A stretch of 64,000 nt of DNA from Dethiobacteria bacterium (GCA_050948825.1 JBMNEO010000001.1:11673-75672), one strand, 5' to 3'. Shown: positions 3,758 through 50,966, counted from the first letter of the stretch. Notes: a model not told the origin generated them from the letters alone. Numbers and translations: made by a program.

Positions 3758-3776
3758 CTTTCAGGTTTTAAATAGC

Positions 3777-4166: not shown

Positions 4167-4316
4167 GATTATTCGCCTCCCAGGAAAAAGTAAAATTCTA
4201 AAGATCATTTCTATAAAGTGATTCAGCATCCTATAATAAAGATTGTCCCTCTTAGGATAATCATAAGTACTCCGTGTAGCCAGGAACCGCCATGTATGGC
4301 GGTTCCCCGAATAACC

Positions 4317-4556: not shown

Positions 4557-4783
4557 TAGCCCACTTCCACTTCAACCTGGTTTACACCAACAAATTTAAC
4601 AGTTTCTAAAATTTGTTCTTTATCGTCAATCGTTTCAAGAAATACTTCAATTGCCTCTTTAATCCGGGGAAAAATCTCCTCTATGGTTTTTGCTTGTGTA
4701 AATACTCCAGGCAATTCTGGTACTGAACCAATAAAGTAACCATCTATTCCTCTAGTTATAAGAAATGTGTAATTTTTTTTCAT
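4556..4783 (-). CDS. hicB: HicB-like antitoxin (UPF0150-type N-terminal domain)
   Basis: 75 aa. MKKNYTFLITRGIDGYFIGSVPELPGVFTQAKTIEE is typical of the HicB_N fold. It is translationally coupled to hicA. Confidence 0.6.
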   Translation of the reverse strand: MKKNYTFLITRGIDGYFIGSVPELPGVFTQAKTIEEIFPRIKEAIEVFLETIDDKEQILETVKFVGVNQVEVEVG

Positions 4784-4968
4784 TAACTATCATCTCCAAT
4801 GTATCAATCTTCTTATATTTTATCATATAAGCAATTTAAATAATACAACACATCGCTTCTTCAAAAAATGAGATTTTAGACTAGGACCCTGCCTCAACGA
4901 GGCAGATCGTATCCCGATGCCTGCGGAAACTGAGAAATTTTCAATAGCTGCCCTAAAACATTATAAGA

Positions 4969-13458: not shown

Positions 13459-14151
13459 CTAGCTTGATGCTTCTGTCTCTCCAAAGGGGCACACGAAGTC
13501 ATCCGGCAGCTCGGGTGCGGGAGCGTTGTTGGTGGTCTGCCCAGCTATTACGCCGAAGACGAGATTGATTTTGGAGCCCTGATAATCGTTTCCGGTCCCC
13601 TCCCCGGGCAACGTGACTTCAACATCGTAAGTTAAAGACTCGCCGGGTGCCAGTTCAGCTAAACCAAACTTCAGGGGTTTTTGATCTTTGGGAAGTATGT
13701 CATTATAGAAAACGCTTTCTCCAAGATTAAAATCATCCCAGGTTGCGCCTCTGACCGAAATTTTGAAGTTTAATACATCGGAGAGACCCTTGTTGCCGTA
13801 GCCTTTATCAGCAAGCATTTGTGTCATGCCTGGATATTCATTATCAAGAGCATCGTTTAATTGGCCTTTGATATCTTCCCAGCAAAGGTAACCCATGAAC
13901 TGAAGGTTCTTTGAGCCTTCATTGACAACTACGAATGAACCCTTTTCCACATCGCCGGGGTTCATGTTATTAATTTCTAAATCTTCTTCTCCTTCAAGGT
14001 TGAGCTCATCAATGGCAATCAGCAGTGTCCCCGCGCTAAAGGTTACCTCATCCGAAACATCGCTGTCCGTGAACCAGGCCATGGTCGCGCCGCCGATAAC
14101 GGCTGCCGCCAGGGCGATAACCAACAAACTTACCAACATTCTGCTTTTCAT
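13459..14151 (-). CDS. TasA/camelysin-family secreted protein with a SipW-cognate signal peptide. First gene downstream of a c-di-GMP riboswitch.
   Basis: MKSRMLVSLLVIALAAAVIGGATMAWFTDSDVSDEVTFSAGTLLIAIDE..NPGDVEKGSFVVVNEGSKNLQF..GNDYQGSKINLVFGVIAGQ. A GGAGGG RBS precedes it. Confidence 0.75.
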   Translation of the reverse strand: MKSRMLVSLLVIALAAAVIGGATMAWFTDSDVSDEVTFSAGTLLIAIDELNLEGEEDLEINNMNPGDVEKGSFVVVNEGSKNLQFMGYLCWEDIKGQLNDALDNEYPGMTQMLADKGYGNKGLSDVLNFKISVRGATWDDFNLGESVFYNDILPKDQKPLKFGLAELAPGESLTYDVEVTLPGEGTGNDYQGSKINLVFGVIAGQTTNNAPAPELPDDFVCPFGETEASS

Positions 14152-14186: not shown

Positions 14187-14280
14187 AAACCCCATCTGGC
14201 GGCCAGGCTGCCATTCTATGGAAAGGCCCTGTGGCTTTGCGCCCCTGCCTTTCGGCAGGTTTGCCCTTTTCAGAAACCTG
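14187..14280 (-). promoter_or_regulatory. c-di-GMP-I (GEMM) riboswitch aptamer in the 5' leader of the TasA-like gene 13459..14151
   Basis: The minus strand reads GAAAAGGGCAAACCUGCCGAAAGGCAGGGGCGCAAAGCCACAGGGCC..GCCUGGCCGCCAGAUGGGG. It has the GEMM hallmarks: GGCAAACC, a GAAA tetraloop hairpin and GGGGCGCAAAGCC. It is paralogous to the elements at 48060..48180 and 50862..50966. Confidence 0.75.
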
Positions 14281-37215: not shown

Positions 37216-38145
37216 CTAGAACATTTCCCCAAATGATTGAAAAATCCTGAGAAACGCCGGGCCCAACAACACTACAAACAGGGTGGGGAAGATAAAGAAA
37301 ACCAGGGGGAAGAGCATCTTAATCGGAGCCTTCATAGCCGCCTCTTCAGCCCGCTGCCTGCGCTTCTGCCGCATGGTGGAGGCCTGGATACGCAATGTCT
37401 TCGCGATATTGCTGCCAAGCTGTTCGGATTGAATTACAGCGCTGATGAAACTGCTCAAATCGGGAACCCCTGTACGCTTTACAATCCCGCGCAGCGATTC
37501 CTCATGGGTCCTCCCCAGGCGCATCTCTTCCAGTGCACGTGCAAATTCTTTGCCGAGGGCGCCCGTTTCCTGTTCCGCAACTCTTTTTAAGGACATGGTA
37601 AAGCTTAAGCCGGCCTCCACGCTGACCAGCAGCAGGTCGAGAACATCCGGCAGGGCTTTTTGTATCTCTTTTTGCCGCTTTTGGGCCTGCGTGTTGAGAA
37701 TATTGTAGGGCAGCATCCCCCCGATAATGACCGCCAGCGCTGTTATTAAAAAAAAGTTCTGCCCCTCCAAGTTTCTCAACCAGGAAAAGGCCAGGGCTAA
37801 AAGGAGAAAAACCAGCACCATCGCCGCCTGCAGCGAAACAAAACCGTTAAATGATATATTCCACGGGTTGCCGGAATAGGAGATTTTTCTTTCAATACTA
37901 TTGCGGAATTCCCGCGGGGTAACGCTCCCCAAAACCCCGCTGATCTTTTTAAAACCTGGCCGGATCAGCCTTTCAAAGAAGGGTTTTTTTAGTTCATCTT
38001 CCTCATTGTCGCCCGTATCCATTTTTTTAACTTCCAGTAGCCGCTCCGCAAGCTGCCGCTTGCTGTTGAAAAATACTTCAGAAACAGCAACGACCAGCAA
38101 AACGACAGTGGAAAAGGTTAGCAAATATATTACCGGGGATAACAT
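37216..38145 (-). CDS. tadC: Tad pilus inner-membrane platform protein TadC (T2SSF domain)
   Basis: ..LPDVLDLLLVSVEAGLSFTMSLKRVAE.. is T2SSF. There are 3 TM helices. The start is at MLSPVIY with an AAAGAGGG RBS. The ORF track extends to 38229. Confidence 0.75.
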   Translation of the reverse strand: MLSPVIYLLTFSTVVLLVVAVSEVFFNSKRQLAERLLEVKKMDTGDNEEDELKKPFFERLIRPGFKKISGVLGSVTPREFRNSIERKISYSGNPWNISFNGFVSLQAAMVLVFLLLALAFSWLRNLEGQNFFLITALAVIIGGMLPYNILNTQAQKRQKEIQKALPDVLDLLLVSVEAGLSFTMSLKRVAEQETGALGKEFARALEEMRLGRTHEESLRGIVKRTGVPDLSSFISAVIQSEQLGSNIAKTLRIQASTMRQKRRQRAEEAAMKAPIKMLFPLVFFIFPTLFVVLLGPAFLRIFQSFGEMF

Positions 38146-38314
38146 TTTTACACCCTCTTTAACGTTCAATAATTCCGGAATCCAAATGACTATATCCGGT
38201 GCAAATCTCAGGCGCGCCCAGGGCGACATAAATCGGATCGTTATCGCGCACGGTGAAACCTACATACCGGGTCCGGTCCGAAGCCTAGACTCGATCGTAT
38301 GATCTTCGAATACA

Positions 38315-39250
38315 TTACCCGACGATCTGCATAACCACTGCAAAGCCAAGCATGAGCAGCCCCAGGGTTTCCTGCACGAGCGTTAACATATAGTCAGGGT
38401 TCATGATCGCTAAAAAAGCGGCAACAGCAAAGGGTAATAATACAATAATGATCGCGGACAATTTGCCCTGAGCCGTGAGGGTTTTAATCTCCCCCTGGAT
38501 TCTGACACGTTCCCGTATGGTGTGCGCGATATTATCCAGGATCTCGGCAAGGTTGCCGCCGACCTGTTTCTGGATGAGCAGTGCGGTTATGACAAGATTA
38601 AGATCGTCGCTGTCGATCCTCTCCCCAAGGTTATGCAGCACTTCCTCAAGCTGTTTGCCCATACGGTTTTCCAGGATTACCCGACCAAATTCCTCGCCGA
38701 TCGGGGGGGGCATCTCCCGCTGGACTACAGCCATGGCCTGTGGAAAACTAAAGCCTGACCTGAGGCCGCTGGAAACGATGGAGAGCGCTTCCGGAAGCTG
38801 GCGTGTAAAAGCGGCAGTCCTGCTGTTTTTTTTAAGATCGACAATGATTCCGGGGAGCTTTAACCCTGCCAGCCCGGAAAGGATGGAAAACAGCAAAGAT
38901 CCGCTAATAATGTAAATAAGGAAGAACATCGCCAATCCGCTAAAAAAAGTCAGCCCCGCATACTCTTCCGCGCGCATTAAGATGTGCGCCTGCAGCAGCT
39001 TTTTCTGGATTGTATGCTGATTGCCGCGCCGGGAGATCGTTTTTCCCAGCAGGCCCAAAAAACGCAACAGTTCGCCCCCGAAACCATTAGACCTGACCGT
39101 CTCCGGCTGTGCAGGGGCGGCCTCAGGCATGGTACAGGTTTTTAACCTTTCCCTGACAAGCATCTGTGAAGAAAAAATAAGCTGGTGCATCCCTGCAAAC
39201 AGCAATATTACGGTTAAAAAAGCACCGCTACAGGCTACGTAAAACATCAT
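38315..39250 (-). CDS. tadB: Tad pilus inner-membrane platform protein TadB (T2SSF domain)
   Basis: ..LPEALSIVSSGLRSGFSFPQAMAVV.. is T2SSF. TM helices sit at both ends. Confidence 0.75.
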   Translation of the reverse strand: MMFYVACSGAFLTVILLFAGMHQLIFSSQMLVRERLKTCTMPEAAPAQPETVRSNGFGGELLRFLGLLGKTISRRGNQHTIQKKLLQAHILMRAEEYAGLTFFSGLAMFFLIYIISGSLLFSILSGLAGLKLPGIIVDLKKNSRTAAFTRQLPEALSIVSSGLRSGFSFPQAMAVVQREMPPPIGEEFGRVILENRMGKQLEEVLHNLGERIDSDDLNLVITALLIQKQVGGNLAEILDNIAHTIRERVRIQGEIKTLTAQGKLSAIIIVLLPFAVAAFLAIMNPDYMLTLVQETLGLLMLGFAVVMQIVG

Positions 39251-39265
39251 CTTAGAACCTCCTGG

Positions 39266-40576
39266 TTAGAACCTTCTGAAAGCCGGCTCGGGATGTTTAT
39301 CCTGAAATATTTCCATACTCAATTTCTCATTGTATGCTTTCAGCTTTTCCATACACTGGGGAATAATGCCGGTCGGCATGTGTCTTCCGCTAATAAAGCC
39401 TTTTTCATTAATACCTGACTGGTTATAAACAAAGATATCCTGCATGGTGATCGTATCGCCTTCCATCCCGACCACCTCAGTTATCTTGACTATTTTGCGG
39501 CTCCCGTCATTAAGGCGAGACTGCTGAATTATAAGGTCGATAGCCGAGGAAATCTGCTCCCGGATCGCCCGCAGGGGTAAATCCATCCCCGCCATAAGCA
39601 CCATTGTCTCCAAACGTGCCAGGGCATCTCTGGGATTGTTGGCATGCAGGGTCGAGATTGATCCATCGTGTCCCGTATTCATCGCCTGAAGCATGTCAAG
39701 AGCCTCGCCCCCCCTTACCTCACCGACCACAATACGATCGGGGCGCATCCGCAGTGAGTTGATGACGAGATCCCTGATCGCAATTCTTCCCTTGCCGTCT
39801 ATATTCGGGGGACGGCTTTCCAGGGTAACAACGTGCTCCTGCCAGAGCTGCAGCTCTGCCGCGTCTTCAATGGTAACGATGCGCTCCTTTTCAGGGATGA
39901 AGCTGGAAAGCACGTTTAAAGTAGTGGTTTTACCGCTGCCGGTCCCTCCGGAGACGATGATATTCGCCCGGGCGCGCACGCACCCCCTTAAAAAGTTTGC
40001 TATTTCCCTGGTCATCGTGCCAAAGCCGATCAAATCCTCTGACTTAAAGGGGTCCGTGGCAAATTTCCGGATTGTCAGAACAGGACCCCTGACGGCCAGC
40101 GGCGGGATTATTGCGTTCACCCGCGAGCCGTCCGGCAGGCGGGCGTCAACCATCGGCGAACGATCGTCGATCCTTCTTCCCAGAGGAGCAAGGATCTTCT
40201 CTATCGTATGAACAACATGGGCATTGTCCCGGAAACATACACCGGTTTTTATAATTTTTCCGTCCCGTTCAATAAAAACCTGGTCGCAGCTGTTTACCAT
40301 AATCTCTGTAACGGTAGGATCGTGAATGAGCGGATCTATCGGACCGTAACCGAGGATTTCATCTGCCACATCCTCAATGACTTTTTGGCTGTCGCTTTGC
40401 GAGAGTTCCCGGCCAAACTCATTCAGGACAACTTCTAAAGTGCGGTTTATTTGCTTGTAGAGATGTTCCTTTCGAGCCGGATTCATTCTCTCCGGGAAAA
40501 ATGCGCTGTCTGTCGTACCAATGACCTGTCGCAGGGTTTCACTGACAATTATGTCCAGCTCTATTTTCTTATTCAT
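39266..40576 (-). CDS. cpaF: Tad/Flp pilus assembly ATPase CpaF/TadA
   Basis: ..IIVSGGTGSGKTTTLNVLSSFIP..ERIVTIEDAAELQL..RMRPDRIVVGEVRGGEALDMLQAMNTGHDGSISTLHAN.. Confidence 0.9.
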   Translation of the reverse strand: MNKKIELDIIVSETLRQVIGTTDSAFFPERMNPARKEHLYKQINRTLEVVLNEFGRELSQSDSQKVIEDVADEILGYGPIDPLIHDPTVTEIMVNSCDQVFIERDGKIIKTGVCFRDNAHVVHTIEKILAPLGRRIDDRSPMVDARLPDGSRVNAIIPPLAVRGPVLTIRKFATDPFKSEDLIGFGTMTREIANFLRGCVRARANIIVSGGTGSGKTTTLNVLSSFIPEKERIVTIEDAAELQLWQEHVVTLESRPPNIDGKGRIAIRDLVINSLRMRPDRIVVGEVRGGEALDMLQAMNTGHDGSISTLHANNPRDALARLETMVLMAGMDLPLRAIREQISSAIDLIIQQSRLNDGSRKIVKITEVVGMEGDTITMQDIFVYNQSGINEKGFISGRHMPTGIIPQCMEKLKAYNEKLSMEIFQDKHPEPAFRRF

Positions 40577-41744
40577 TTCCTGTTGCCACCCCGTTTTCTA
40601 ATATTTTACGTGCTATGCGCTGAATGCCGCGGCTGATTCTTGCCCGGGGATTGAGCAGGACAACAGGAACGCCTTTGTTTAATGACGAAGATACCAGCCT
40701 GTGCTCCGCCGGCAGCAACCCGTAAAGGCTTTGCTCCAGAGTTGTCTCGACATCCCTGCTCTTTATCTCACCCCGCGGTTCTGCCTTGTTAAGCAGCAGT
40801 CTTATCTTATGCCTGGGATAGTTAATAGTATTTAAAGAAACCATGCAGGCCCTGGTATTGCGAATCGCAGCTAAATCCTGCGTGGTAACAAGCATGAGCA
40901 GGTCGGCTTCCTGAAAGGCAGGGCTCATTGCGTCACCGGCACTTACAGGCAGATCTATAACAACATAATCAAATCCTTCTTGCAGGATCTTGATGATTGC
41001 TTCAACATGATCGGCGCCAATGAAATTTGTCATCTGCGGCTGTACGTTGGCGGCCAGCACCTTGACGCCGGATTGATGCTCAGTGAGGTAGCCGTTTAAC
41101 AGATCACTGTCAAGGTTGCGGATATCATTGACAACATCGGCAATTGTATAACGCGGAATAAGATTTAAGGCCAGAGAAATACTGCCAAAATCGAGGTCTA
41201 GATCTAACAGCGCTACCTTCTTACCTTTATGCTTCGCCAGGGAAACCGCAAGGTTTGTGGAGAAAAAGGTTTTGCCGACGCCTCCTTTGGTGCTAAATAC
41301 CGTAATAACCTTTCCCCTGCGGAGGTCTTTTTCCGCTCCGGGCTTTTTCTCTCGTTGCAGCTCCCTTTTCTTCTTCTCCAGCTGAAAGCTGCGGTGGATG
41401 GCATCAACCAGTTTTGATGGTGGAAAGGGATAGACGATCGCGTCCTTTGCCCCGGCAATAATCGTTTTACGCATAGCTTCTTCATTTATTTCATCTTCAA
41501 TCATGATAGTCGAAATCCAGGAGTGGGATAAAGAAAGCTGTTCCGCCAGCTTGTAACCGTCTTCCGAAAGAAGTGCATCAATGAGCATCACATCCGGATT
41601 ACTTTTCTCCACCATTTCCAGCGCCTCTTCAGCACTGCCGGCTTCACCTTCCAGCTTGATAAACTCCACATTGGAAAGGGTTCCGGCGATAGCTGACCGC
41701 TTTTCCGGGTCATTTTCAACAACGAGTACTTTAATACGCTCCAT
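40569..41744 (-). CDS. Response-regulator receiver domain fused to a CpaE/TadZ-like MinD/ParA-family ATPase
   Basis: N-terminal REC: MERIKVLVVENDPEKR..DVMLIDALL. The P-loop reads VITVFSTKGGVGKTFFSTNLAVSLA, with ..DYVVIDLP... Confidence 0.75.
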   Translation of the reverse strand: MERIKVLVVENDPEKRSAIAGTLSNVEFIKLEGEAGSAEEALEMVEKSNPDVMLIDALLSEDGYKLAEQLSLSHSWISTIMIEDEINEEAMRKTIIAGAKDAIVYPFPPSKLVDAIHRSFQLEKKKRELQREKKPGAEKDLRRGKVITVFSTKGGVGKTFFSTNLAVSLAKHKGKKVALLDLDLDFGSISLALNLIPRYTIADVVNDIRNLDSDLLNGYLTEHQSGVKVLAANVQPQMTNFIGADHVEAIIKILQEGFDYVVIDLPVSAGDAMSPAFQEADLLMLVTTQDLAAIRNTRACMVSLNTINYPRHKIRLLLNKAEPRGEIKSRDVETTLEQSLYGLLPAEHRLVSSSLNKGVPVVLLNPRARISRGIQRIARKILENGVATGNE

Positions 41745-41748
41745 GAAA

Positions 41749-42492
41749 TCACCTCTCCCTGAACGATTCTAAGTTTTCGGGGCTATAATAATCAAGCCCT
41801 ACTGTTTCTTCGTCGAGCGGCGAGCGCAGGCTCAGGTGGAAAGTCCCGTTAACATTGGCAAAGGCAAGCACTTCGGCCTGCGCCGGAGTAACCAGAAGCG
41901 TTACTGAATTTACAAGCTGCCTTTCCTCATTATCCTGCGGAAGGGTATGCTCTCCGACAGCCAGCACAGTGACATTTTGAACCACGGTGTAAACGATGGG
42001 GACTTCTTTGATGTCAGTATCGTCATAGGAAACCAGAACATCAACCTTATCCCCCGCCGAAATATAACCGGCAACCCCGATTTCCTCGCTGTTTATGGGG
42101 ATAGAAAACCCCCTGAGTTTTTCCGGCACACGGTAAGACAGCCCGGCCCGCCTGACGTCCGTAGCAACCCGGCTTTTCAGGACCTGCTCTCCTTTAATAA
42201 TATCCGCCCTGGAGATGCCGCCGACAGCCTCGTCCAAACTCGTCAGGGCCTCCGGATGCAGAGTATCTTCCGGGACAGAAGTAATTGTGAGCATCTCCGA
42301 TGTTATTCTGCTGTGCTGCGGTATTGTAATACCGGCGACCACCACGTCTGTTTGTGGGACGGGCGGCAGCGTTGAAGCCGCAGCAGGGTTTTTAAGATAC
42401 TGGTTTAACGCTAAAACTGTAATAAGTCCCATAATCACCGCCAATAACAAAAGCTTTCTACCGGATTTCAAAAGAATACCCGCCCCTTTCAA
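41749..42492 (-). CDS. cpaB: Flp pilus assembly protein CpaB/RcpC (SAF + RcpC domains, N-terminal TM)
   Basis: ..VVAGITIPQHSRITSEMLTITSVPEDTL.. then ..RGFSIPINSEEIGVAGYISAGDKVDVLVSY.. Confidence 0.75.
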   Translation of the reverse strand: MKGAGILLKSGRKLLLLAVIMGLITVLALNQYLKNPAAASTLPPVPQTDVVVAGITIPQHSRITSEMLTITSVPEDTLHPEALTSLDEAVGGISRADIIKGEQVLKSRVATDVRRAGLSYRVPEKLRGFSIPINSEEIGVAGYISAGDKVDVLVSYDDTDIKEVPIVYTVVQNVTVLAVGEHTLPQDNEERQLVNSVTLLVTPAQAEVLAFANVNGTFHLSLRSPLDEETVGLDYYSPENLESFRER

Positions 42493-42499
42493 TTGAGCT

Positions 42500-43474
42500 T
42501 TACTCCACTAGCACAAGGTTGTAAACACCAAAGTCATTTTCATCAGCAGGATCATCGGGTGAAGAAGGCGAAGCGTTATTCGGCAAAAACCATTTAATAA
42601 ACTTCCCCGTAACATTACACATATTTCCACTGCCCTCTACCCCTGTTATCTCGAAGCATGCAAAGCCGGCCACCTGTATCGAACCTCTCCCGCTTACATC
42701 TGTTATGCTGCTGTCATAAAGCGGGATTATAACAATCGTGTCATTATGGTCAAGCCTGTAACTTATCCCTTGATTTGTAGGCCCGGACATGTTTCCCGGT
42801 TCGGTGTCGATATAATCACCAATGGAGATTACTCCCTGGTAACCGTGCTTGATATTATTCCTGTAGTTGTTCGCTCCCGTACCCCCGAGAGCGATTGCGC
42901 CGAAATTACCATTGCCGATGGATCCGTCCTGCCATTTTCCAACTTTGAGCAGGACCTCTTCGCCGTAACTATAATCTTCTCCGGGAGGCGGCATAGGTAC
43001 GATAAAGGGAACAATCCCGGTTACCGCCCTGGCCGGCTTGATCGCAGCTTTGGCCCGCGCAGATACTGACGTTGAATGAAAGCCCAGGACCTTTGCAAAT
43101 GAGAAGTCAACAACCTGGCTGGCGGATACCGTGATTTCACAATTGTTGCCGGAGACAGTTACGGTAACATTCTCCGGCTCTGCCCCGTTTTTCGAAGCAT
43201 ATTCAAGCGCTCTCGTTTCGGCTTGAGCGGGGTTGCTTACCAGTTCCTGGGCTCCCGCCAGCGCTGCGGCATCGGCAGCGGTAACCATTTTTCTTCTGGC
43301 ATAGGCGATACTCCCTACATCGGTAACCATCGCCGTTAAGCCGAGCAAAAATACCATTGCGGCGGCGATAATTACAAGGACACCCCCATTTTCATCGGTT
43401 AGCAGCAAATTAAACTTTTTCTTCATTACACAGTCATCCTTTTTGCTTGCCGGGCCATGATCAAACTCAATCAT
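42500..43474 (-). CDS. TadE/TadG-like pseudopilin / pilus-assembly protein (Tad-family N-terminal domain)
   Basis: ..NGGVLVIIAAAMVFLLGLTAMVTDVGSIAYARRKMVTAADAAALAGAQE.. is the typical Tad TadE/G-like N-terminal domain. Its ATGA overlaps tadE. Confidence 0.6.
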   Translation of the reverse strand: MIEFDHGPASKKDDCVMKKKFNLLLTDENGGVLVIIAAAMVFLLGLTAMVTDVGSIAYARRKMVTAADAAALAGAQELVSNPAQAETRALEYASKNGAEPENVTVTVSGNNCEITVSASQVVDFSFAKVLGFHSTSVSARAKAAIKPARAVTGIVPFIVPMPPPGEDYSYGEEVLLKVGKWQDGSIGNGNFGAIALGGTGANNYRNNIKHGYQGVISIGDYIDTEPGNMSGPTNQGISYRLDHNDTIVIIPLYDSSITDVSGRGSIQVAGFACFEITGVEGSGNMCNVTGKFIKWFLPNNASPSSPDDPADENDFGVYNLVLVE

Positions 43475-43980
43475 GTGACCGGCAGGATTTTCGTGCCGTC
43501 CTCATCGCCCCCGGGGATAAGGGCAAGGTCCGCCGTCGAAATTAAGGCAGAGGCGGCCTGCCCAACCTCGAGGCGCATTGACGCGGTGGAGACCAGCGGA
43601 AAGACATCTCCGACCATTCTATCCAGAATGGGAACAATTACATCCACAGATGCATTAACCGTGACTTCTATTTCTTCGCCAACGATACGGTTTGAAGGGC
43701 CGGGGGTGATGGAGATAGAATCGGAAGAAACATTGAGAAATGGCGTAGAAGCCACACAATCTAAAACCATGCTCTTAACATCGTCATCTGATTTTCCGAC
43801 CGCAGCAAGGCGCGCTCCATCCCTGACTGCATGTGAAATAGTAAGCTGGCCATTAAAGATCAAACCAAACTGAAGTATGCCGAAAAGCAGCGGGGGCAGG
43901 ACAAATATTAATAAGAGCGCAAACTCAACCAGAGACTGCCCCTTTTCCGTTTTTTTCATAAACTTCAGCAGCTTAACCAT
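43471..43980 (-). CDS. tadE: TadE-family minor pilin
   Basis: ..EKGQSLVEFALLLIFVLPPLLFGILQFGLIFNGQLTISHAVRDGARLAAVG.. is the TadE signature. Confidence 0.7.
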   Translation of the reverse strand: MVKLLKFMKKTEKGQSLVEFALLLIFVLPPLLFGILQFGLIFNGQLTISHAVRDGARLAAVGKSDDDVKSMVLDCVASTPFLNVSSDSISITPGPSNRIVGEEIEVTVNASVDVIVPILDRMVGDVFPLVSTASMRLEVGQAASALISTADLALIPGGDEDGTKILPVT

Positions 43981-44068
43981 GCTCTCACACTCCTAACCTG
44001 GACATAGCCGGCGGCAACAGGCTTGCCCCGCCTGCTTGCAGGCAACGGCAGCACGTTGCCGGAATAAT

Positions 44069-44668
44069 TTAAAACAGGCTGTATAAAACGGGCTGTGCAG
44101 CTCCGCTTAAGGCGATAATTGTTCCTGCTGCTATGGCTACACCGTAAGGCAAATAGACCTTTTCCGCTGAATGCGTCTCAAAAGAAGATGATAATAATAA
44201 TGATAGCTGATTAAGATAAGGGTTTCTGAATCTAAAATAAAGTAAAGCAAGCAAGGGAACGGCAACAAAGGCCAGTATTTTCTTTAATATTCTTAAAAAC
44301 TGCCGGTTATAAATTAGATAGATAACAGCAAGAATTCCCCCGCAAAAAGCGGTAAATACCGCGGCATAAAAAACAAACTGCAATCCTTTTAAAGCGCCGA
44401 TAGCCCCCAGGAGTTTTACATCGCCCCCTCCCATGCCGCCGAGCATAAAGGGGATGAAAAAAATGGCTAACCCTAATAGCAGGCCGTAAACGCTGAACAA
44501 AAAACCTTCCGGCCCGCCCGTAATTGTATGAGCCAGCAAACCCCAGAGCATTACCGGAAACGTCAGGAAGTTGGGGATTTTTTTCCTGGTAAGGTCAAAA
44601 AAAAGCGCTGCCAGCAGCAGGGCAAGCAATATATAATCGTTATACTGTAAAGGCAGTTGTAAAATCAT
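44069..44668 (-). CDS. cpaA: Prepilin peptidase (A24 family, CpaA/TadV-like)
   Basis: About 6 TM helices. ..FMLGGMGGGDVKLLGAIGALKG.. supplies the second catalytic Asp. Confidence 0.75.
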   Translation of the reverse strand: MILQLPLQYNDYILLALLLAALFFDLTRKKIPNFLTFPVMLWGLLAHTITGGPEGFLFSVYGLLLGLAIFFIPFMLGGMGGGDVKLLGAIGALKGLQFVFYAAVFTAFCGGILAVIYLIYNRQFLRILKKILAFVAVPLLALLYFRFRNPYLNQLSLLLSSSFETHSAEKVYLPYGVAIAAGTIIALSGAAQPVLYSLF

Positions 44669-44762
44669 AAGAACGCTCCTGCTAATTCAAGTAATCGGGG
44701 GAGAAAACACCCCGGAGATACTGCTCCCGCGATGAAGAGGCCTTTTGTATCTTCATTACGTT

Positions 44763-44936
44763 TTATGGCCAGTTCAGAGCCTCGTGATTGATAAATGTAT
44801 TAAATAAAGCCAGCACTTGCCCCCCCAGCTGCCTCAGGGCAAAAGAGACAATCAGGACAACGAAGGCAATAATCAGGGAATATTCCATCAGACCCTGTCC
44901 CTCATCCAAATACAACTTTTTTATGTAAACAGTCAT
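44763..44936 (-). CDS. flp: Flp-family pilin (57 aa)
   Basis: Not in the ORF track because it is under 60 aa. Minus-strand translation is MTVYIKKLYLDEGQGLMEYSLIIAFVVLIVSFALRQLGGQVLALFNTFINHEALNWP*. It has the Flp motif G-x-x-x-EY plus a hydrophobic helix, with an AAAGAGGA RBS. Confidence 0.7.
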   Translation of the reverse strand: MTVYIKKLYLDEGQGLMEYSLIIAFVVLIVSFALRQLGGQVLALFNTFINHEALNWP

Positions 44937-44966
44937 AGCTTATCCTCTTTTTGCTGAAGATTTTTT

Positions 44967-45001
44967 GTTACCTGCCCCCTGGGAAACAGGGGGCAGGTAA
45001 C
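44967..45001. other. Perfect 15-bp-stem hairpin (GTTACCTGCCCCCTG-ggaaa-CAGGGGGCAGGTAAC) between the two flp genes
   Basis: Seen directly. It lacks a 3' U-tract on the minus strand. It probably acts as a stability/attenuation element, as is common downstream of major pilin genes. Confidence 0.5.
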
Positions 45002-45091
45002 AAAAGCTTATCTTTAAGAATTTAGCTATACTAATCTACTTCGCACGCTCCCGTCTAATCCTTTGTAATTTCTCAAAAACTATTAATTTCA

Positions 45092-45211
45092 TCACCCAAT
45101 AGTTCCTAGCACCCCAATAACCGCCACCGCAATCAACACCAGGATCAAGGCGTATTCCGCCAGGCCCTGTCCTTCCTCGTCCCTGACCAATCTGGAAATC
45201 ATTTTCAGCAT
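45092..45211 (-). CDS. flp: Flp-family pilin (40 aa), first gene of the Tad operon
   Basis: Not in the ORF track. MLKMISRLVRDEEGQGLAEYALILVLIAVAVIGVLGTIG*. It has the Flp motif GQGLAEYALIL and a perfect AAGGAGG RBS. Confidence 0.7.
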   Translation of the reverse strand: MLKMISRLVRDEEGQGLAEYALILVLIAVAVIGVLGTIG

Positions 45212-45356: not shown

Positions 45357-45833
45357 TTAGTCCATTGAGGAACACTCATTATCCGGACACAGAATCAGGT
45401 GAAACAAACCCCTGTAACAGGCCCCCACCAGCGCTTCGGCCTCCTCGGGGTAAACAGCTAGCGTTACCGCAGTTTGATGCTCTCCGGTTTCTTCTTCCGC
45501 CTCCCCGGAAGAGAGCACGAGGGCATTTTTTGCGGCGGTGTAGACCGGGGGCGGTTCACCGTTGCCGCGGTCAATCGCAACAAGCACGTCCACCCGGGCG
45601 CCGCAGCTCATATACCTGGACAAACCGGATAATTTATTTACCGGGATGGATATGCCGCGCATCTTCTTGGGAATCAGGCTGGAGAGGTTTCTTTCCGGAT
45701 TTGTTTCCGCTAGAGGCGGGTCAACTTCATTTTCCCGCTGCTCATCCCGAACCTCATTTTTAACCTCATCTGCAACCTCTTCTTCAACCTCCGGCTCCTC
45801 TTCAGCTTCCCGGACCGGAAGGGGTTCCACCAA
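45357..45833 (-). CDS. CpaB/RcpC C-terminal-domain-only protein with an acidic N-terminal segment (TTG start). A fragment or remnant of a second CpaB.
   Basis: ..RGISIPVNKLSGLSRYMSCGARVDVLVAIDRGNGEPPPVYTAAKNALVLSSG..TAVTLAVYPEEAEALVGACYRGLFHLIL aligns with residues ~127-235 of the CpaB at 41749..42492. It has no TM or SAF domain. Confidence 0.5.
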   Translation of the reverse strand: MVEPLPVREAEEEPEVEEEVADEVKNEVRDEQRENEVDPPLAETNPERNLSSLIPKKMRGISIPVNKLSGLSRYMSCGARVDVLVAIDRGNGEPPPVYTAAKNALVLSSGEAEEETGEHQTAVTLAVYPEEAEALVGACYRGLFHLILCPDNECSSMD

Positions 45834-45860
45834 AGTTGCGCTATGCGGTCAACAGTATCT

Positions 45861-47975
45861 TCACGGGGATAGATCGCTATGTTGCCTTCCCCGAAAGAAG
45901 CCGGAGACAGCGGAGGAGATGCTGGAGGACTGCTCGCCGGCGGAAATATCCCTCCGGACAGCGGAACTAATGAGCACCAATCTGTTTTCCCTGTTACCCT
46001 GCCTGTCAAACTCACTTCTGCTTTGGCTGAAATATTCTTTTCCTTCCGTTTTAACCGGATGATCTGTTTCCACTTCAGCCGGCTCATTTGGATCAACTGC
46101 GTTATTTAGATTAGCTTCTGGATTAACTTCTTCTTCTGGATCAACTGCTTCATCTGTCTCATCAATGTCATTAGCATCATAAGTATTATCAATATCATCA
46201 ATATCATCAATATCATCAATATCATCTATTTGATCAGTATCATCAGTATCATCTGTTACATCCAGATAATCTGTATCATCGTCTATTGCCCCCGAATAAC
46301 TTGTTTCCTCTGTATAACTTGTTTTATACATATAATTTGTTTCATTTAATACATCAGCTTCATCCATATCATCTGTTCCATCTGTTTCATAGGCTTCGTA
46401 TGTTTCATAAGCTTCATCTATCTCGCCCATTTCATCCAGATCTTCCAGATCATCCAGATCCTCAAGATCTTTTTTTTCTTTTATTTCCCCGATCATTTCA
46501 TCTGATCCGGCCACCCCATCATCTTCATGTAAATATTTCGCCTCTTCAGCAAGCGGCTCCACTGGCGGCTCTTTTTCCTCCACTTCTTCCTGTTCGCGGG
46601 GTTGCTGTGCCTGGTATTTCTCCTGTAAGCCTTCAATGCAGTCCGCCTCACCGCAAGCCCTCAACTTATCAATACATCTGGGGGTTGTCCCCGTGTATTT
46701 ATGCTCGCCCTGGACCATCCCGCTCTCGTTCAGACCGTCCTGCTGAAAGACAAAGATATCCTGCAGGGTTATATGGTCTTTCTCCATTCCCACCACTTCG
46801 CTAATCCTGGTTATTTTGCGCGTCCCGTCGCTGAAACGGGACTGCTGGATAATCAGCTCTATGGCAGAACTTATCTGCTCTCTGACAGCGGGCAGGGGAA
46901 GGTCCATACCGGCCATCAGCACCATGGTTTCCATACGAGTCAGCGCCTCACGGGGATTATTTGCGTGCAGGGTGGATATAGAACCATCGTGTCCTGTATT
47001 CATGGCCTGCAGCATGTCAAGCGTTTCAGCCCCTCTGACCTCTCCGACCACGATGCGATCCGGCCTCATGCGCAGGGAATTGATCACCAGTTCCCTAATC
47101 GTATACTGTCCCCTGCCTTCAATGTTGGCCGGGCGGCTCTCCAGGGTAACGACGTGATCCTGCTGTAGTTGTAGCTCGGCTGTATCTTCGATAGTAATTA
47201 TCCTTTCGTGATCGGGTATGAAACTTGAAAGCACATTCAGGGTGGTCGTCTTACCGCTGCCGGTCCCGCCGGAGACGATAATATTGACGCGCGACCTCAC
47301 GCAGGCCTTGAGAAACATAACCATCTCCTCTGTCATCGTTCCCAGTTCTAATAAGTCTTCCACGGTAAAGGGATCAGCAGCAAATTTTCGGATCGTCAGT
47401 GACGGCCCCTTGAGGGCCAGGGGCGGAATAATGGCATTTACGCGTGAGCCGTCCGGCAAGCGGGCATCTACCGTCGGTGAACTCTCGTCAATCCTCCTGC
47501 CCAAGGGGGTGATGATTTTATTAATAACGTGTAGAACATGCTCGTTATTCCGGAAAGTAACCTCCGTCTTGGCAATTCTGCCGTCCCGCTCCACATAGAC
47601 ATTATCATAGCCGTTCACCATAATTTCAGTAACGGCAGGATCATCGAGCAGCGAATTTATCGGGCCATAACCAAATATCTCATCGCAGACGTATTGAATT
47701 ACTTTTTGCTTGTCGCTCTGTGAAAGATGAAGGCTGCTCTCTTCCAGTACCGCTACCAGTGTATCGTAAATCTGCTCCGTGAACTGCCTCATTTGGAATG
47801 AGTCGAGCTTTTCTAGCACCAGCTTATCGTCTACTGAATCTATAACCTTTGTTAAGGTTTTGGATGCAATCTCTTCCAGCTCTTTTTTCCTGTCTGTGAT
47901 ATTATTTGATGAGGGTTCCCTGCTAAGCAGCTGCGGTCTCTTCCCATTGAACCTTAATTGCTGTTTTGGAAACAT
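45861..47975 (-). CDS. Second CpaF/TadA-family ATPase carrying a ~300-aa C-terminal acidic low-complexity extension with (DID)n and ETYEAY repeats. It lies immediately downstream of a c-di-GMP riboswitch.
   Basis: The start is set at MFPKQQLRF.. with a GGGTGGG RBS. The ORF track start at 48101 would overlap the riboswitch. The core is ..IIVSGGTGSGKTTTLNVLSSFIPDHERIITIEDTAELQL..GHDGSISTLHAN... The tail is ..DDTDDTDQIDDIDDIDDIDDIDNTYD... The last ~40 codons look out of frame. Confidence 0.75.
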   Translation of the reverse strand: MFPKQQLRFNGKRPQLLSREPSSNNITDRKKELEEIASKTLTKVIDSVDDKLVLEKLDSFQMRQFTEQIYDTLVAVLEESSLHLSQSDKQKVIQYVCDEIFGYGPINSLLDDPAVTEIMVNGYDNVYVERDGRIAKTEVTFRNNEHVLHVINKIITPLGRRIDESSPTVDARLPDGSRVNAIIPPLALKGPSLTIRKFAADPFTVEDLLELGTMTEEMVMFLKACVRSRVNIIVSGGTGSGKTTTLNVLSSFIPDHERIITIEDTAELQLQQDHVVTLESRPANIEGRGQYTIRELVINSLRMRPDRIVVGEVRGAETLDMLQAMNTGHDGSISTLHANNPREALTRMETMVLMAGMDLPLPAVREQISSAIELIIQQSRFSDGTRKITRISEVVGMEKDHITLQDIFVFQQDGLNESGMVQGEHKYTGTTPRCIDKLRACGEADCIEGLQEKYQAQQPREQEEVEEKEPPVEPLAEEAKYLHEDDGVAGSDEMIGEIKEKKDLEDLDDLEDLDEMGEIDEAYETYEAYETDGTDDMDEADVLNETNYMYKTSYTEETSYSGAIDDDTDYLDVTDDTDDTDQIDDIDDIDDIDDIDNTYDANDIDETDEAVDPEEEVNPEANLNNAVDPNEPAEVETDHPVKTEGKEYFSQSRSEFDRQGNRENRLVLISSAVRRDISAGEQSSSISSAVSGFFRGRQHSDLSP

Positions 47976-47999
47976 TTTTATCCCACCCTTATTCTGAGA

Positions 48000-48036
48000 A
48001 ATCAGGAAAACAAATACCCGGCGCCGGCGCCGGGAT
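48000..48036 (-). terminator. Intrinsic terminator forming the expression platform of the riboswitch upstream of the cpaF paralogue
   Basis: On the minus strand, CCCGGCGCCGGCGCCGGG is followed by UAUUUGUUUUCC. It lies between the aptamer and the RBS. Confidence 0.6.
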
Positions 48037-48059
48037 GCACGAATAAGGATTATAAAAAT

Positions 48060-48180
48060 CCCGTCTTCGGCAACCTGGCAATCATGGCCCACTAAGATCA
48101 TGCTAAGATCATGTTACTGAAGGCTTTAGACCCATGGCTTTGCGTCCCTGCCTTTCGACAGGTTTGCCTTTATCGGTCAG
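48060..48180 (-). promoter_or_regulatory. c-di-GMP-I (GEMM) riboswitch aptamer
   Basis: The minus strand reads CUGACCGAUAAAGGCAAACCUGUCGAAAGGCAGGGACGCAAAGCCAUGGGUCUAAAGCC...GCCAGGUUGCCGAAGACGGG. It has GGCAAACC, a GAAA tetraloop and GGGACGCAAAGCC, matching the canonical Vc2-type aptamer. Confidence 0.85.
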
Positions 48181-48192
48181 GAAAATGTCTCC

Positions 48193-49470
48193 TCACCTGA
48201 TAATTAAATCATGGTTTTTAAATGAGTTTGTATAGTATTTTGATTCGGGAGTATTTCTGTAAAAGATCTGATTAGACATCTCCAACGCACTGAGATAGCA
48301 CTCCCTAACGTCAATCTCCGCAAGTTCCAGCAGCGTTGTCTTGATCGCCAGCTGCTCCCAGTCACCCGATTCATAAGCTAAGATCAGTTCATAAACATCC
48401 TTGAATCTGCTTTTGCCGCCCAGCAGCGCAAGTTTGATATCATCGGATATTGGAAGCTCTGCTAATATGTCGGGCAGAGGCCGGTCGAGAAAAGCGTCGA
48501 TGAGAGAAAACATACCCATCAGGAAAAGATCCGGGCTGCGGTCCTTCAGGCCAACTCTGGGTGCAATCAGCTCACAAAACCTTGCCCTGCAGATCGCCGT
48601 GATAATAAGCTCGTCCGGCTTGTTATCGCCTATGCCTCTTAAAGCAATAAGGGAAAGCCATTTACTGAGTTCTTTCTGTCCTAAAAGAACAAGCGCCTGC
48701 TTAATGGAGCGGATTTCATTCCTGAAACCAAAGGATAACGAGTTGATAAACTTGAGCAACTTGTATGAAAGAGAAACATCCATTTTTATATAGTCTTCAA
48801 TCCGGTCAAAATCCAGATCCTGCTTGTTGACTTCCTGCAGTATTTTCAGGTAGATGAGCTTGAAGCTGGGGATATCTTTTCCGCTAAGAATAAGGGGTTT
48901 GCTGAAAAAATACCCCTGGAAGTAAGAATAACCCATCTCCAATGCTTGATTAAATTCATCCCTGGTCTCCACTTTTTGCGCCAGAAAATGTATTTTATGT
49001 TTGCCAACCCTCTGAACGATCGCTTCTCTTTCTTTCTTTTGGGTTTTCAAAAAATCCACTTTGATAATATCAACCAGATCTATCAGCGGCAATAATTTGT
49101 TATTGTAGCTAAAATCGTCCAGCGCCAGATAGTAGCCCAGCTCCTTCAACTTTCTGCAGGCGTTTAAAGTTTTTTCGTCCAGCTCAATATCCTGCAGGAT
49201 CTCTATAACAATGGCCTCATTGGGTAGAAGGGTGGCCACATCATTTTCCAGCAGGTTTTTGGTAAAATTTATGAAAGCCTTTTTGCCCCTGGTAAGCGTT
49301 TCCAGACCAATAAGCAGAAAGCTGTTGGTAATAACCTCAAAAGAAGCCTGGTCTCCGTTTAAAGTGGAATAAAATTTGTTAACCCCGGAACGATACAGGA
49401 GCTCGTAGGCAAACACTTCCTGATTTCGATTAAAGATTGGCTGTCTGGCCACATATATCTCCATATCCAT
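48193..49470 (-). CDS. EAL-domain + HDOD-domain protein (c-di-GMP phosphodiesterase-like / signalling)
   Basis: ..QPIFNRNQEVFAYELLYR.. is the EAL motif region. ..ALDDFSYNNK..IIKVD.. then an HDOD-like C-terminal half (..ALVLLGQKELSKWLSLIAL..). The start is at MDMEIY with a GGAAGAGGGG RBS. The ORF track extends to 49551. Confidence 0.7.
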   Translation of the reverse strand: MDMEIYVARQPIFNRNQEVFAYELLYRSGVNKFYSTLNGDQASFEVITNSFLLIGLETLTRGKKAFINFTKNLLENDVATLLPNEAIVIEILQDIELDEKTLNACRKLKELGYYLALDDFSYNNKLLPLIDLVDIIKVDFLKTQKKEREAIVQRVGKHKIHFLAQKVETRDEFNQALEMGYSYFQGYFFSKPLILSGKDIPSFKLIYLKILQEVNKQDLDFDRIEDYIKMDVSLSYKLLKFINSLSFGFRNEIRSIKQALVLLGQKELSKWLSLIALRGIGDNKPDELIITAICRARFCELIAPRVGLKDRSPDLFLMGMFSLIDAFLDRPLPDILAELPISDDIKLALLGGKSRFKDVYELILAYESGDWEQLAIKTTLLELAEIDVRECYLSALEMSNQIFYRNTPESKYYTNSFKNHDLIIR

Positions 49471-49557
49471 GGGTTTAATCCCCTCTTCCTTTCTCTTCTT
49501 TCTCCTTACAAGTCTCTTACACGGGCCTTCTACAGGCTTCTTGCAGGGCAAGATAAT

Positions 49558-50760
49558 TTAACGTCCTACAAGTTCCTCCTCCCAGATAACAGAGAGGCGG
49601 GAGCCTTTATAACGTACCTTCAGGGGGATATCCTCATAGTTTTGTGCTAAATGACTTGCCTGCGGCAGAGAGCCGAAGTATTTCATATTTCCGCTGTGGA
49701 TATCCATAGTGGGGTCGGCGGGAACCCAGCCGCTCCCGTCGAGGAAAAATTCAACCCAGCTGTGCCGGTAACCCTGCAGAGGGAACCTCTCCCCGGGGGA
49801 AAGGTTCCAGATGTCTCCCGTACCTTTGGGGTCACAGTAGCCGTTTATCACCCTGGCCGGGATCCCTGACGCGCGGCAGAGCGCGGCAAAAAGGGAAGCA
49901 TAGTCCTCACATACCCCTGAACCGTTGCGTAAAGCTGTTAGCGCCCCCCCATTGCGTGAGCTTGAATTGAGATCGTATTTCAAATATGTAATGACAAAGC
50001 TGCAAATGGCACGCGCCTTTTCAAGATCTGTTTTACACGCTGACGTAAGCTCGCGCGCTTTTCTTACAATATCGGGATGGTTGCTCTCAATTTTTTCGGA
50101 AGCTCCCAGGAAATTTTGAGGAAATAGGTTGTTATGATAATTGTTTGCCATCAATTGTTTCAGGTTTAACGGGTAAACATTCAAGAAGTATTCCAGGGTT
50201 ATCGTATCACCGGCCCCTGGACGCAGTGAATCCAGCTGAAAAACAGCAATGCGGTTGTTATTGCTCAGCCGCTTAACTTCAACCGGTTTGTGACTGAAGG
50301 TTTCTTTGGCGACTTCCTGGTATGGGGAGTCAAGCTCGGCCAGCAGGGGGATTTCCAGCCGGATGTTTGAGGCTGTATCGCTGCCTTTGTTTTTTACCAC
50401 GATGTTCACGCGCAGACTTCTGCCGTAAGCATGGCCGGAAGAATACGTTTTGACTGCAGGGTACGGCAGGGCACCGGCAGCATCAGGAAGAACGTTATCC
50501 GCTTCTGATCCGAAAATCTCGGAAGGATCTTCTTTAGGATCTTCTTTCCCCGCTGTTGCAGCCGGGGTAAAAGAATCATCTTTCCCCGTCGCTGCAAGCG
50601 TGGCCTGCGGAGGTTCATACCGGTACACATTATCCTTGCCAACCTGAACTTTTTCCTGGGAATAAGGATTGAAAAAAGTTAAAACCAGCAGCAGGATAAA
50701 AATAATAATTAGGGCAATAACAAGTAATTTTTCGGTCAGTATTTCTGATTTGCCATTCAT
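49558..50760 (-). CDS. Membrane-anchored transglutaminase-like cysteine-protease-domain protein, downstream of a c-di-GMP riboswitch
   Basis: N-terminal TM. The transglutaminase core is ..NGSGVCEDYASLFAALCRASGIPARVINGY..GYRHSWVEFFLDGSGWVPADPT, giving Cys, His and Asp. The start is at the ATG at 50760. The TTG at 50787 used in the ORF track lies inside the terminator hairpin. Confidence 0.7.
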   Translation of the reverse strand: MNGKSEILTEKLLVIALIIIFILLLVLTFFNPYSQEKVQVGKDNVYRYEPPQATLAATGKDDSFTPAATAGKEDPKEDPSEIFGSEADNVLPDAAGALPYPAVKTYSSGHAYGRSLRVNIVVKNKGSDTASNIRLEIPLLAELDSPYQEVAKETFSHKPVEVKRLSNNNRIAVFQLDSLRPGAGDTITLEYFLNVYPLNLKQLMANNYHNNLFPQNFLGASEKIESNHPDIVRKARELTSACKTDLEKARAICSFVITYLKYDLNSSSRNGGALTALRNGSGVCEDYASLFAALCRASGIPARVINGYCDPKGTGDIWNLSPGERFPLQGYRHSWVEFFLDGSGWVPADPTMDIHSGNMKYFGSLPQASHLAQNYEDIPLKVRYKGSRLSVIWEEELVGR

Positions 50761-50784
50761 GCCTGTCCCCCCGGGAGGGACCGA

Positions 50785-50815
50785 CAAACCGAAAAACCCC
50801 GGCCAGGCCGGGGAT
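50785..50815 (-). terminator. Intrinsic terminator (riboswitch expression platform) upstream of the transglutaminase-like gene
   Basis: On the minus strand, CCCCGGCCUGGCCGGGG is followed by UUUUUCGGUUUG. Confidence 0.65.
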
Positions 50816-50861: not shown

Positions 50862-50966
50862 AAATCCCTGTCTTCGGCAACCTGGCGATCTTAGCCCCTC
50901 ATTACAGAGCTTTAGACCCATGGCTTTGCGCCCCACCCTTTCGGGATGGTTTGCCTTTGTCGGTCA
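50862..50966 (-). promoter_or_regulatory. c-di-GMP-I (GEMM) riboswitch aptamer
   Basis: The minus strand reads CUGACCGACAAAGGCAAACCAUCCCGAAAGGGUGGGGCGCAAAGCCAUGGGUCUAAAGCUCUGUAAUGAGGGGCUAAGAUCGCCAGGUUGCCGAAGACAGGG. It is nearly identical in its core to 48060..48180. Confidence 0.85.

Follow-up and report, generated by a model that had tools for sequence, protein, structure and literature searches.

The window analysed here, a 64,000-nucleotide (nt) stretch of a Dethiobacteria bacterium (GCA_050948825.1, JBMNEO010000001.1:11673-75672), contains a complete locus of the Tad pilus machinery and, 5′ of it, a second gene for the motor ATPase CpaF. This second copy, cpaF2, forms a reading frame of 704 amino acids (aa) as written (45861..47975; stop TGA at 45863..45861) and is followed by a short open reading frame (ORF) encoding only an RcpC domain (45357..45833). 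All genes of the region lie on the minus strand, as do the other window features given coordinates below, a hairpin between the flp genes excepted. We conclude that the two frames are very probably one gene and not two, a split member of a fusion family in which a CpaF core, a linker and the D2 domain of RcpC form a single chain.

The gene is preceded by a riboswitch. A covariance model places a GEMM-I aptamer—the Rfam c-di-GMP-I-GGC variant (RF03167; c-di-GMP, cyclic di-guanosine monophosphate)—at 48065..48177, which, read from 48177 to 48065, scores 73 bits, above the gathering score of 59, and matches the model at full length (positions 1-80). Its expression platform, located by terminator scanning and leader RNA folding, is a terminator hairpin at 48007..48034 (CCCGGCG-CCGG-CGCCGGG), whose 7-base-pair (bp) stem is all GC and is followed by the T-run TATTTGTTTT. 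The listed ORF (45861..48101) starts within the aptamer, with its first 42 codons overlapping it. The true start of cpaF2 is the ATG at 47975, which is preceded by a Shine-Dalgarno (SD)-like GGGTGGG (47988..47982); homologues share this start point (MFPKQQ/MFSKQ).

Residues 1-455 of the gene product (46611..47975) constitute a CpaF/TadA ATPase core, delimited by its Pfam T2SSE match, its identity to the canonical CpaF and its alignment to PDB entry 9E24. The T2SSE domain (PF00437, PilT/VirB11-type) spans residues 105-380 (E 3e-69), and the Walker A motif GGTGSGKT is present. Comparison with the canonical CpaF of the locus returned 67% identity over 427 aa, gapless, and 422 residues could be aligned with Caulobacter CpaF structures (E 5e-123; query 21-442 versus 69-488 of the 9E24 chain). 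The proline-arginine pair equivalent to Caulobacter P386/R387 is conserved in CpaF2, where HANNPRE aligns with HANSPRE and the whole C-terminal motif is kept. In an AlphaFold model of a monomer of the ortholog P0038, introduced below, this core is predicted confidently. An earlier reading of the window, made from its sequence alone (hereafter the original prediction), had proposed a second cpaF with an intact ATPase core, and the domain match, the identity to the canonical CpaF and the structure alignment all bear this out. The core would appear to be a recent paralogue of the local CpaF, judging from the sequence comparison.

Beyond the core, the tail of cpaF2 as written extends for ~250 aa and is acidic and repeat-rich. 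Composition and translation delimit a low-complexity linker (aa ~456-655; 46011..46610) rich in D and E, with DLEDLDDLEDLDE, EAYETYEAYET and (DDI)n repeats; in its frame-repaired form, the linker contains 32.5% D+E and 7.5% K+R and carries a net charge of -83. The counterpart in P0038, ~110 aa long, is modelled by AlphaFold as disordered between folded core and folded D2, with a predicted local distance difference test score (pLDDT) <40. Tandem Repeats Finder (TRF) reports a 9-bp array at 46159..46253 (10.6 copies, 80% match). The acidic low complexity, the ETYEAY repeats and the 9-bp repeat had all been described correctly in the original prediction, except that the perfect atcaatatc units number four (46188..46223) rather than five, the others being degenerate. 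Comparison with close relatives further exposed a conserved non-acidic island in the linker (NRENRLVLISSAVRRDISAGEQ; 45930..45995) that resembles the first strand of the SAF/D1 domain; the SAF-like remnant before D2 is limited to a short island, RLVLISSAVRRDISAGEQ. Docking of the island was not predicted in the AlphaFold2 (AF2) model. Hydrophobic linker motifs (RLVLISS, LRLVQK and similar) were also considered as a docking strand and dropped, being weakly defined and modelled by AF2 at pLDDT <40 in P0038.

The RcpC-only ORF (TTG/GTG start; NCBI protein MGI6327403.1, 157 aa) lies in the same frame as cpaF2. Its N-terminal 49 aa are acidic and disordered, and residues 49-148 match Pfam RcpC (PF16976) with 55.9 bits against a cut-off of 28.8. 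The ORF gave no match to a SAF domain, whereas the canonical CpaB of the locus has one (PF08666), and no transmembrane (TM) segment was found in it. It is thus only the RcpC-like C-terminal half of CpaB, with a TTG start and acidic residues in front, just as had been predicted. On the NCBIfam equivalog TIGR03177 (cut-off 71 bits), it scores 55.5, P0038 96.4 and the canonical CpaB 174, the P0038 match covering profile positions 100-218 only. No SD-like sequence was found 5′ of this ORF, whereas cpaF2 and flp1, the first gene of the Tad locus, have clear ones.

AF2 modelling and fold matching assign residues 50-150 of the ORF (45384..45686) to the ring-forming D2 domain of RcpC. The domain is modelled with a pLDDT of 85-96, and the only significant PDB fold matches of the model in Foldseek were chains A and B of 9GZR (probability 1.00). 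A profile alignment pairs a family-invariant Arg and Asp with Arg130 and Asp153 of 9GZR, residues that bond neighbouring RcpC protomers (PMC12307814). The structure of Pseudomonas aeruginosa RcpC, solved in 2025, shows the periplasmic alignment complex with a C12 ring made of D2 domains (PMC12307814). As far as models can show, the fused C-terminal domain is this ring-forming D2. The RcpC part shares 41% identity with D2 of the local CpaB, of which it is, by sequence, a likely paralogue. With a core 67% identical to the local CpaF next to it, ‘partial duplicate of the Tad machinery’ is a fair description of the region.

How, then, are the two frames connected? The distance between their starts as listed is a multiple of three (48101-45833 = 2268 = 3 x 756), meaning that cpaF2 and the RcpC-only ORF share a frame, and two TGA codons (45863..45861 and 45851..45849) separate them. 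DNA alignment to the related locus L001, represented by two haplotypes (L001a and L001b), revealed two compensating indels, +1 and +2, ~85 nt apart within the linker. At site 1 (45921..45929), in a TCCTCC context, the window is 1 nt longer than L001a (+1) and 2 nt shorter than L001b (-2). Site 2, which together with the two TGA stops occupies 45840..45863 and whose indel maps to ~45840..45857, has +2 nt relative to both haplotypes and restores the cpaF2 frame. Three-frame translation, read against L001 and its protein P0002, identified 22 out-of-frame codons of the annotated ORF (45864..45929; SSSISSAVSGFFRGRQHSDLSP): these final codons of cpaF2 read as nothing conserved, and the conserved peptide SPPLSPASFGEGNIAIYPRED is found instead in the neighbouring frame. 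For the 22-26 codons in between, the conserved reading lies in another frame. All three minus-strand frames are open across 45834..45960, in agreement with the original prediction. As written, the window sequence encodes a tailed CpaF without an RcpC domain.

Relatives read through this junction. Using the repaired 871-aa conceptual protein as the query, a database search retrieved 18 distinct proteins with T2SSE and RcpC in one chain (629-1203 aa), connected by linkers of 94-668 aa that are always net acidic. P0002 (locus L001, 89% identity) reads RLVLISSAVRRDISVGEQPSSTSPPLSPVSFGEGNIAIYPREDMLPHSATLAEPLPV as one polypeptide. This protein was called as a 238-aa ‘RcpC’ but corresponds to a fusion's C-terminal portion, because the L001 scaffold joins two haplotypes across an N-gap; both L001a and L001b, which flank the gap, are stop-free from the acidic tail into the RcpC N-terminus. 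The SPAdes scaffold makes this join between two diverged linker-RcpC haplotypes across 10 Ns at L001 803..812, and the region appears twice. P0038, from locus L004, has 693 aa and a core 79% identical to that of the window (over the aligned half of the query), and the gene order of L004 equals that of the window (EAL/HDOD, riboswitch, fusion, flp, peptidase, tadE, tad, cpaB, cpaE, cpaF, tadB, tadC, VWA). An intact fusion ORF of ~690 aa is present in L007, from a Bacillota metagenome-assembled genome (MAG; 77% identity), and the complete genome of Candidatus Contubernalis alkalaceticus (L003, CP054699) holds one fusion, named TadA by NCBI.

In L003 and L005, the fusion gene stands apart from Tad genes. 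The riboswitch and fusion gene of L003 (CP054699, 1820129-1842021) have housekeeping genes for neighbours and no Tad gene within 10 kb; any Tad machine on which this fusion acts would have to be encoded elsewhere in the genome. L002 has frameshifts in many genes and is hence uninformative on the frame, and so many frameshift-split genes on one contig suggest an error-prone assembly. The same contig carries an IS21-type element (IstB plus transposase; 2562..5557) between its first c-di-GMP-I riboswitch and a truncated transglutaminase gene.

Because relatives read it stop-free as one ORF, we take the window locus to be one gene. On the evidence of these sequences, it has been annotated in two pieces, as a 704-aa CpaF and a 157-aa RcpC/CpaB family protein, which is also the annotation lesson of the window: two called proteins stem from a single gene. 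The original prediction had raised a frameshifted fusion as one option, and relatives with CpaF core, acidic linker and RcpC domain in one ORF support exactly this. It had also named an observation that would point to local decay, namely homologous loci with a normal-length cpaF followed by a full cpaB and no acidic tail; the opposite was found.

That the window instead encodes two functional genes by design—a tailed CpaF plus a stand-alone cytoplasmic RcpC-domain protein—is very improbable. The Prokaryotic Genome Annotation Pipeline does annotate the 157-aa RcpC/CpaB family protein, and short RcpC-only entries exist in the databases. The best-scoring ones that could be traced, however, are either internal-start calls in intact fusions (P0127 equals the C-terminus of P0038, and P0129 lies in the L007 ORF) or fragments on ~1 kb contigs. 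Moreover, the split version is absent from all good-quality relatives examined, the RcpC ORF has a TTG/GTG start and lacks an SD sequence, and neither ORF shares its frame with the conserved peptide that lies between them.

The fusion family is small and restricted to one lineage, Dethiobacteria-like Bacillota. When 185,579 species genomes were scanned with P0038, the fusion was found only in L007 among the best 80 CpaF loci, and a search of 1.84 billion cluster representatives (50% identity) yielded only four fusions among its 150 best matches. Long P0038 matches in Pelotomaculum, Anoxynatronum, Sporosarcina and others were discarded as canonical cpaB-cpaE-cpaF pieces joined by the scan. Metagenome scans with a conserved junction 40-mer and with P0002 gave no matches, and exact-sequence look-ups matched neither the products of 704 and 158 aa nor P0001 to any contig. 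An RcpC-domain profile search brought up short CpaB fragments but none of the long fusions. No description of a CpaF-RcpC fusion was found in the full-text literature searched, and the fusion gene is apparently undescribed so far. Separately, many CpaF homologues of 1100-1600 aa (P0007-P0018, P0245-P0247) match the query profile in two to four stretches, which may point to single chains with ATPase cores in tandem, such as some from Chloroflexota.

Two explanations for the split itself deserve weight. The first, to which we assign close to an even chance, is an assembly or consensus artefact, with the organism possessing an intact ~870-aa fusion and the indels stemming from a strain mixture assembled over the hypervariable linker. 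The window stems from a MAG (protein P0001; NCBI ‘MAG: Dethiobacteria bacterium’), and the two indels sum to +3, leaving the downstream RcpC domain in frame. Over 46460..46281 and 46160..46101, the window is 100% identical to L001a; near the junction it is closer to L001b than to L001a (57/60 versus 53/60; 51/60 versus 44/60). Because the window shifts there from L001a identity to L001b likeness, the indels sit at a mosaic boundary, and at site 2 the sequence seems blended from both haplotypes. The region is also rich in repeats, and L001 was itself scaffolded with an N-gap here. On the other hand, the remaining Tad genes of the window are all intact, which speaks against a generally error-prone assembly; chimeras that arise in a De Bruijn graph from in-frame haplotypes do not normally make +1/+2 shifts; and the chance that indels sum to a multiple of three is in any case ~1/3.

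The second explanation, a real and recent disruption, is a serious contender at somewhat below an even chance. Here, the cell would make a truncated CpaF2 with an acidic tail and would have lost RcpC expression, rendering the gene an incipient pseudogene or a tolerated variant. The two in-frame TGA stops, the lack of an SD-like sequence before the TTG/GTG of the RcpC ORF (unlike cpaF2 and flp1), the indels that the linker gathers between strains and the prior replacement of the family motif GDRVD by GARVD in close relatives all fit such a loss. It sits less well with an entirely intact ATPase core, with a second, frame-restoring indel 3′ of the stops, which would not be selected, and with an RcpC part that has no further lesions. 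For this part, comparison with the nearest relatives gives a ratio of nonsynonymous to synonymous substitution rates (dN/dS) of 0.37-0.38, and comparison with L007 one of 0.27, although the value for the closest pairs rests on ~20 substitutions and to that extent weakens our reading. The ‘decaying duplication’ offered by the original prediction may apply to the window copy at most, in view of the conserved architecture and a dN/dS of 0.27-0.38 in the RcpC part. Frame restoration, haplotype switch and the site-2 blend are compatible with a chimeric consensus, and also with recombination plus real mutation in a fast-evolving linker.

The tandem repeats bear on a further proposal, that of a contingency (phase-variable) locus in which repeat slippage switches the RcpC domain on and off. 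We give this almost no weight. L001a does carry one 9-bp unit fewer than the window, seen as a 9-nt alignment gap, and the linker harbours many short tandem arrays. Yet all arrays reported by TRF have periods of 9, 12, 18 or 27 bp, and because these are multiples of three, slippage alters length, not frame; nor do the frameshift sites, both outside the arrays, coincide with a homopolymer or short-unit tract. Of the suggested slipped-strand variation, the difference in length thus stands, whereas the on/off switch falls, and repeat variation between strains is linker length polymorphism. Programmed frameshifting was likewise rejected, as it would require two opposite-sign shifts and there are no slippery sites, and so was TGA recoding, given that TGA terminates flp1.

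The riboswitch accompanies the fusion gene throughout the family. A GEMM-I aptamer directly precedes the gene in all seven loci with upstream DNA (the window and L002-L007), always at a distance of 120-200 nt. It is kept in L003, L005 and L006, where no flp/Tad genes come after the fusion gene; because the aptamer precedes the gene even without adjacent flp/Tad genes, we assign the riboswitch to the fusion gene. The description ‘riboswitch-controlled’ in the original prediction is therefore strongly supported. With respect to polarity, leader folding pairs the aptamer 3′ strand with the terminator 5′ arm in L003, L004, L006 and L007. In these four of the seven leaders, the modelled pairing suggests an OFF switch, with ligand causing termination rather than induction. 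For the window, L002 and L005, minimum free energy (MFE) and stepwise folding gave an alternative structure that is not clearly exclusive of the terminator. No promoter-like site or terminator was predicted between the fusion gene and flp1 in the window or L004, and judging from this gap the riboswitch may also gate the Tad operon.

On which side of the membrane does the D2 end reside? Neither a signal peptide nor a TM segment was found in the 18 fusion proteins (maximum KD19 of 1.68, the RcpC-only ORF included, compared with 2.11 for the canonical CpaB control), and no sorting motif was found among them. Because no member has a signal peptide or TM segment, D2 and the linker should, on sequence grounds, be cytoplasmic. 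This is the simplest reading and at the same time the most surprising aspect of the family. The long linkers of P0048, P0052, P0053, P0055, P0058, P0059, P0061 and P0062 carry CLIPPER_2/DUF7507 and DUF11 domains. CLIPPER_2/DUF11 are extracellular, isopeptide-bonded stalk domains of cell-surface proteins (PMC12617251).

Conceivably, linker, CLIPPER_2 and D2 are extracytoplasmic, having crossed the membrane by an unknown export or threading route, and are tethered to the motor or cleaved from it. All modules after the core are of extracytoplasmic type, with D2 being periplasmic in P. aeruginosa and CLIPPER_2/DUF11 forming cell-surface stalks, and the canonical CpaB of the locus has a TM anchor. 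Still, we regard this as highly unlikely: the 18 members lack signal peptide, TM segment and sorting motif, the ATPase core has to be cytoplasmic, and no known mechanism carries the C-terminal extension of a PilT/VirB11-type ATPase over the membrane. Either D2 has an overlooked cytoplasmic function, or an unknown export route exists.

Taking D2 as cytoplasmic, a mechanism can be sketched from recent work on the Tad motor. In Tad pili, extension and retraction are both powered by a single ATPase. Its hexamer has been proposed to flip (Whitfield et al., bioRxiv 10.64898/2026.02.24.707734). Based on AlphaFold3 models and pilus assays, CpaF's C-terminal face has been argued to engage the platform for retraction; R387 on this face is required for retraction, and Caulobacter cells with a C-terminal CpaF-mCherry fusion show no observable retraction events yet still make pili (same preprint). 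As a second motor, the CpaF2 fusion might vie with the canonical CpaF for access to the TadB/TadC platform. Its C-terminal face would have six tethers, all polyanionic, and as many D2 domains hanging from it; the tails may be gathered into a ring by their D2 domains, and the masked retraction face would bias the motor towards one orientation, extension. The riboswitch would set expression, such that with OFF-type leaders the protein is made at low c-di-GMP.

Because CpaF2 keeps its C-terminal face intact yet bears tethers and D2 there, a one-way second motor is the option we favour. A riboswitch-gated paralogous motor with a masked C-terminal (retraction) face nevertheless remains a tentative proposal for the predicted function of the family, with the chances leaning against it. 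Doubtful is the stronger version, in which the fusions would be natural orientation-locked Tad motors, a D2-ring-capped polyanionic brush blocking or regulating the retraction face and the riboswitch selecting between the bidirectional CpaF and its one-way paralogue. If true, nature would here have put the proposed motor inversion to an independent test, and this would be the first reuse of a periplasmic alignment-ring domain inside the cytoplasm. CpaF paralogues with a large C-terminal appendage, found beside a normal CpaF and behind a second-messenger riboswitch, provide, in addition, a ready comparative test of the hexamer flip.

Several observations weigh against our interpretation of the locus. 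The window copy does not itself encode the fusion and, should the indels prove real, is missing its defining domain. The alternative hairpin in the window leader abuts the terminator without overlap, leaving the polarity ambiguous by MFE and stepwise folding, and the aptamer is of the GGC variant in the window, L002 and L007, with c-di-GMP being the ligand predicted from its class. D2 and the otherwise extracellular CLIPPER_2/DUF11 domains fit oddly with a cytoplasmic role. Finally, a domain held on a linker of 94-668 aa may give far weaker steric masking than a directly fused mCherry.

As for the surroundings, the canonical Tad locus opens with the 39-aa pilin gene flp1 (45092..45211), which has a G/LAEY processing motif and follows a 145-nt gap in which no terminator was predicted. 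The locus continues with flp2, prepilin peptidase, tadE, tad, cpaB (TM+SAF+RcpC), cpaE, cpaF (436 aa), tadB and tadC (37216..44936), and a VWA protein gene comes after tadC. A perfect 20-bp hairpin between the flp genes (44962..45006), with no T-run after it on the coding (minus) strand, may be an attenuator or processing signal that sets the pilin:machinery ratio. On the other side, an EAL+HDOD gene (48193..49551) lies immediately 5′ of the fusion riboswitch, an arrangement shared by the window, L002, L004 and L006. Further 5′ of it follow a transglutaminase-like gene (49558..50787), a terminator (50797..50813) and another c-di-GMP-I riboswitch (50873..50965). According to a survey paper, transglutaminase-like COG1305 genes are frequent targets of tandem c-di-GMP-I riboswitches in Bacillota.

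A third GEMM-I aptamer of the window (GGC variant, 68 bits; 14194..14274) lies 5′ of three genes whose products start with GGATMAWFTDSDVS. Such starts may be signals of the TasA/camelysin-type, SipW-dependent kind, which they resemble. The genes 3′ of this aptamer map to 14151..13459, 13113..11899, 11652..10648 and 10313..8679; the protein that comes after those three has 544 aa, with three repeats parted by poly-proline and a C-terminal PPKTGE plus hydrophobic tail. The group may be a c-di-GMP-controlled matrix or fibre operon.

Each module of the fusion has a known counterpart. Like other GEMM-I riboswitches with terminator platforms, the leader combines an above-threshold aptamer with an intrinsic terminator, and an antiterminator is possible in four of the seven leaders; a GEMM-I switch of this kind is Cd1, the OFF switch before the Clostridioides difficile flagellar operon. 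The leader differs in the GGC variant (window, L002, L007) and in its target, a pilus motor fusion, for which the papers searched offered no precedent. With CpaF/TadA of Caulobacter crescentus (PDB 9E24-9E29, 8RJF), the family has in common the core, the T2SSE domain, Walker A, the equivalents of P386/R387 and, in the window and L004, an adjacent complete Tad locus. To these it adds an acidic linker and RcpC D2, and it is a second copy with its own riboswitch, sometimes unlinked to Tad.

RcpC/CpaB of P. aeruginosa (PDB 9GZR; PMC12307814) shares the D2 fold and the invariant equivalents of Arg130 and Asp153. The fusion dispenses with the N-terminal TM helix, D1/SAF and the C-terminal beta-hairpin and is joined to a cytoplasmic ATPase, which would place its D2 on the wrong side of the membrane. 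The engineered CpaF-mCherry (bioRxiv 10.64898/2026.02.24.707734) likewise carries a bulky domain on the CpaF C-terminus; the fusion, in contrast, is natural, has a long, flexible, acidic linker and exists as a paralogue beside an unmodified CpaF. A parallel may also be drawn with two-motor type IV pili, in which two paralogous hexameric ATPases, PilB for extension and PilT for retraction, share one platform; in AlphaFold3 models, opposite faces of the PilB and PilT hexamers engage it (bioRxiv 10.64898/2026.02.24.707734). Unlike PilB and PilT, however, both motors here are CpaF-type and 67% identical, and they would divide the labour between a bidirectional ATPase and its putative one-way paralogue.

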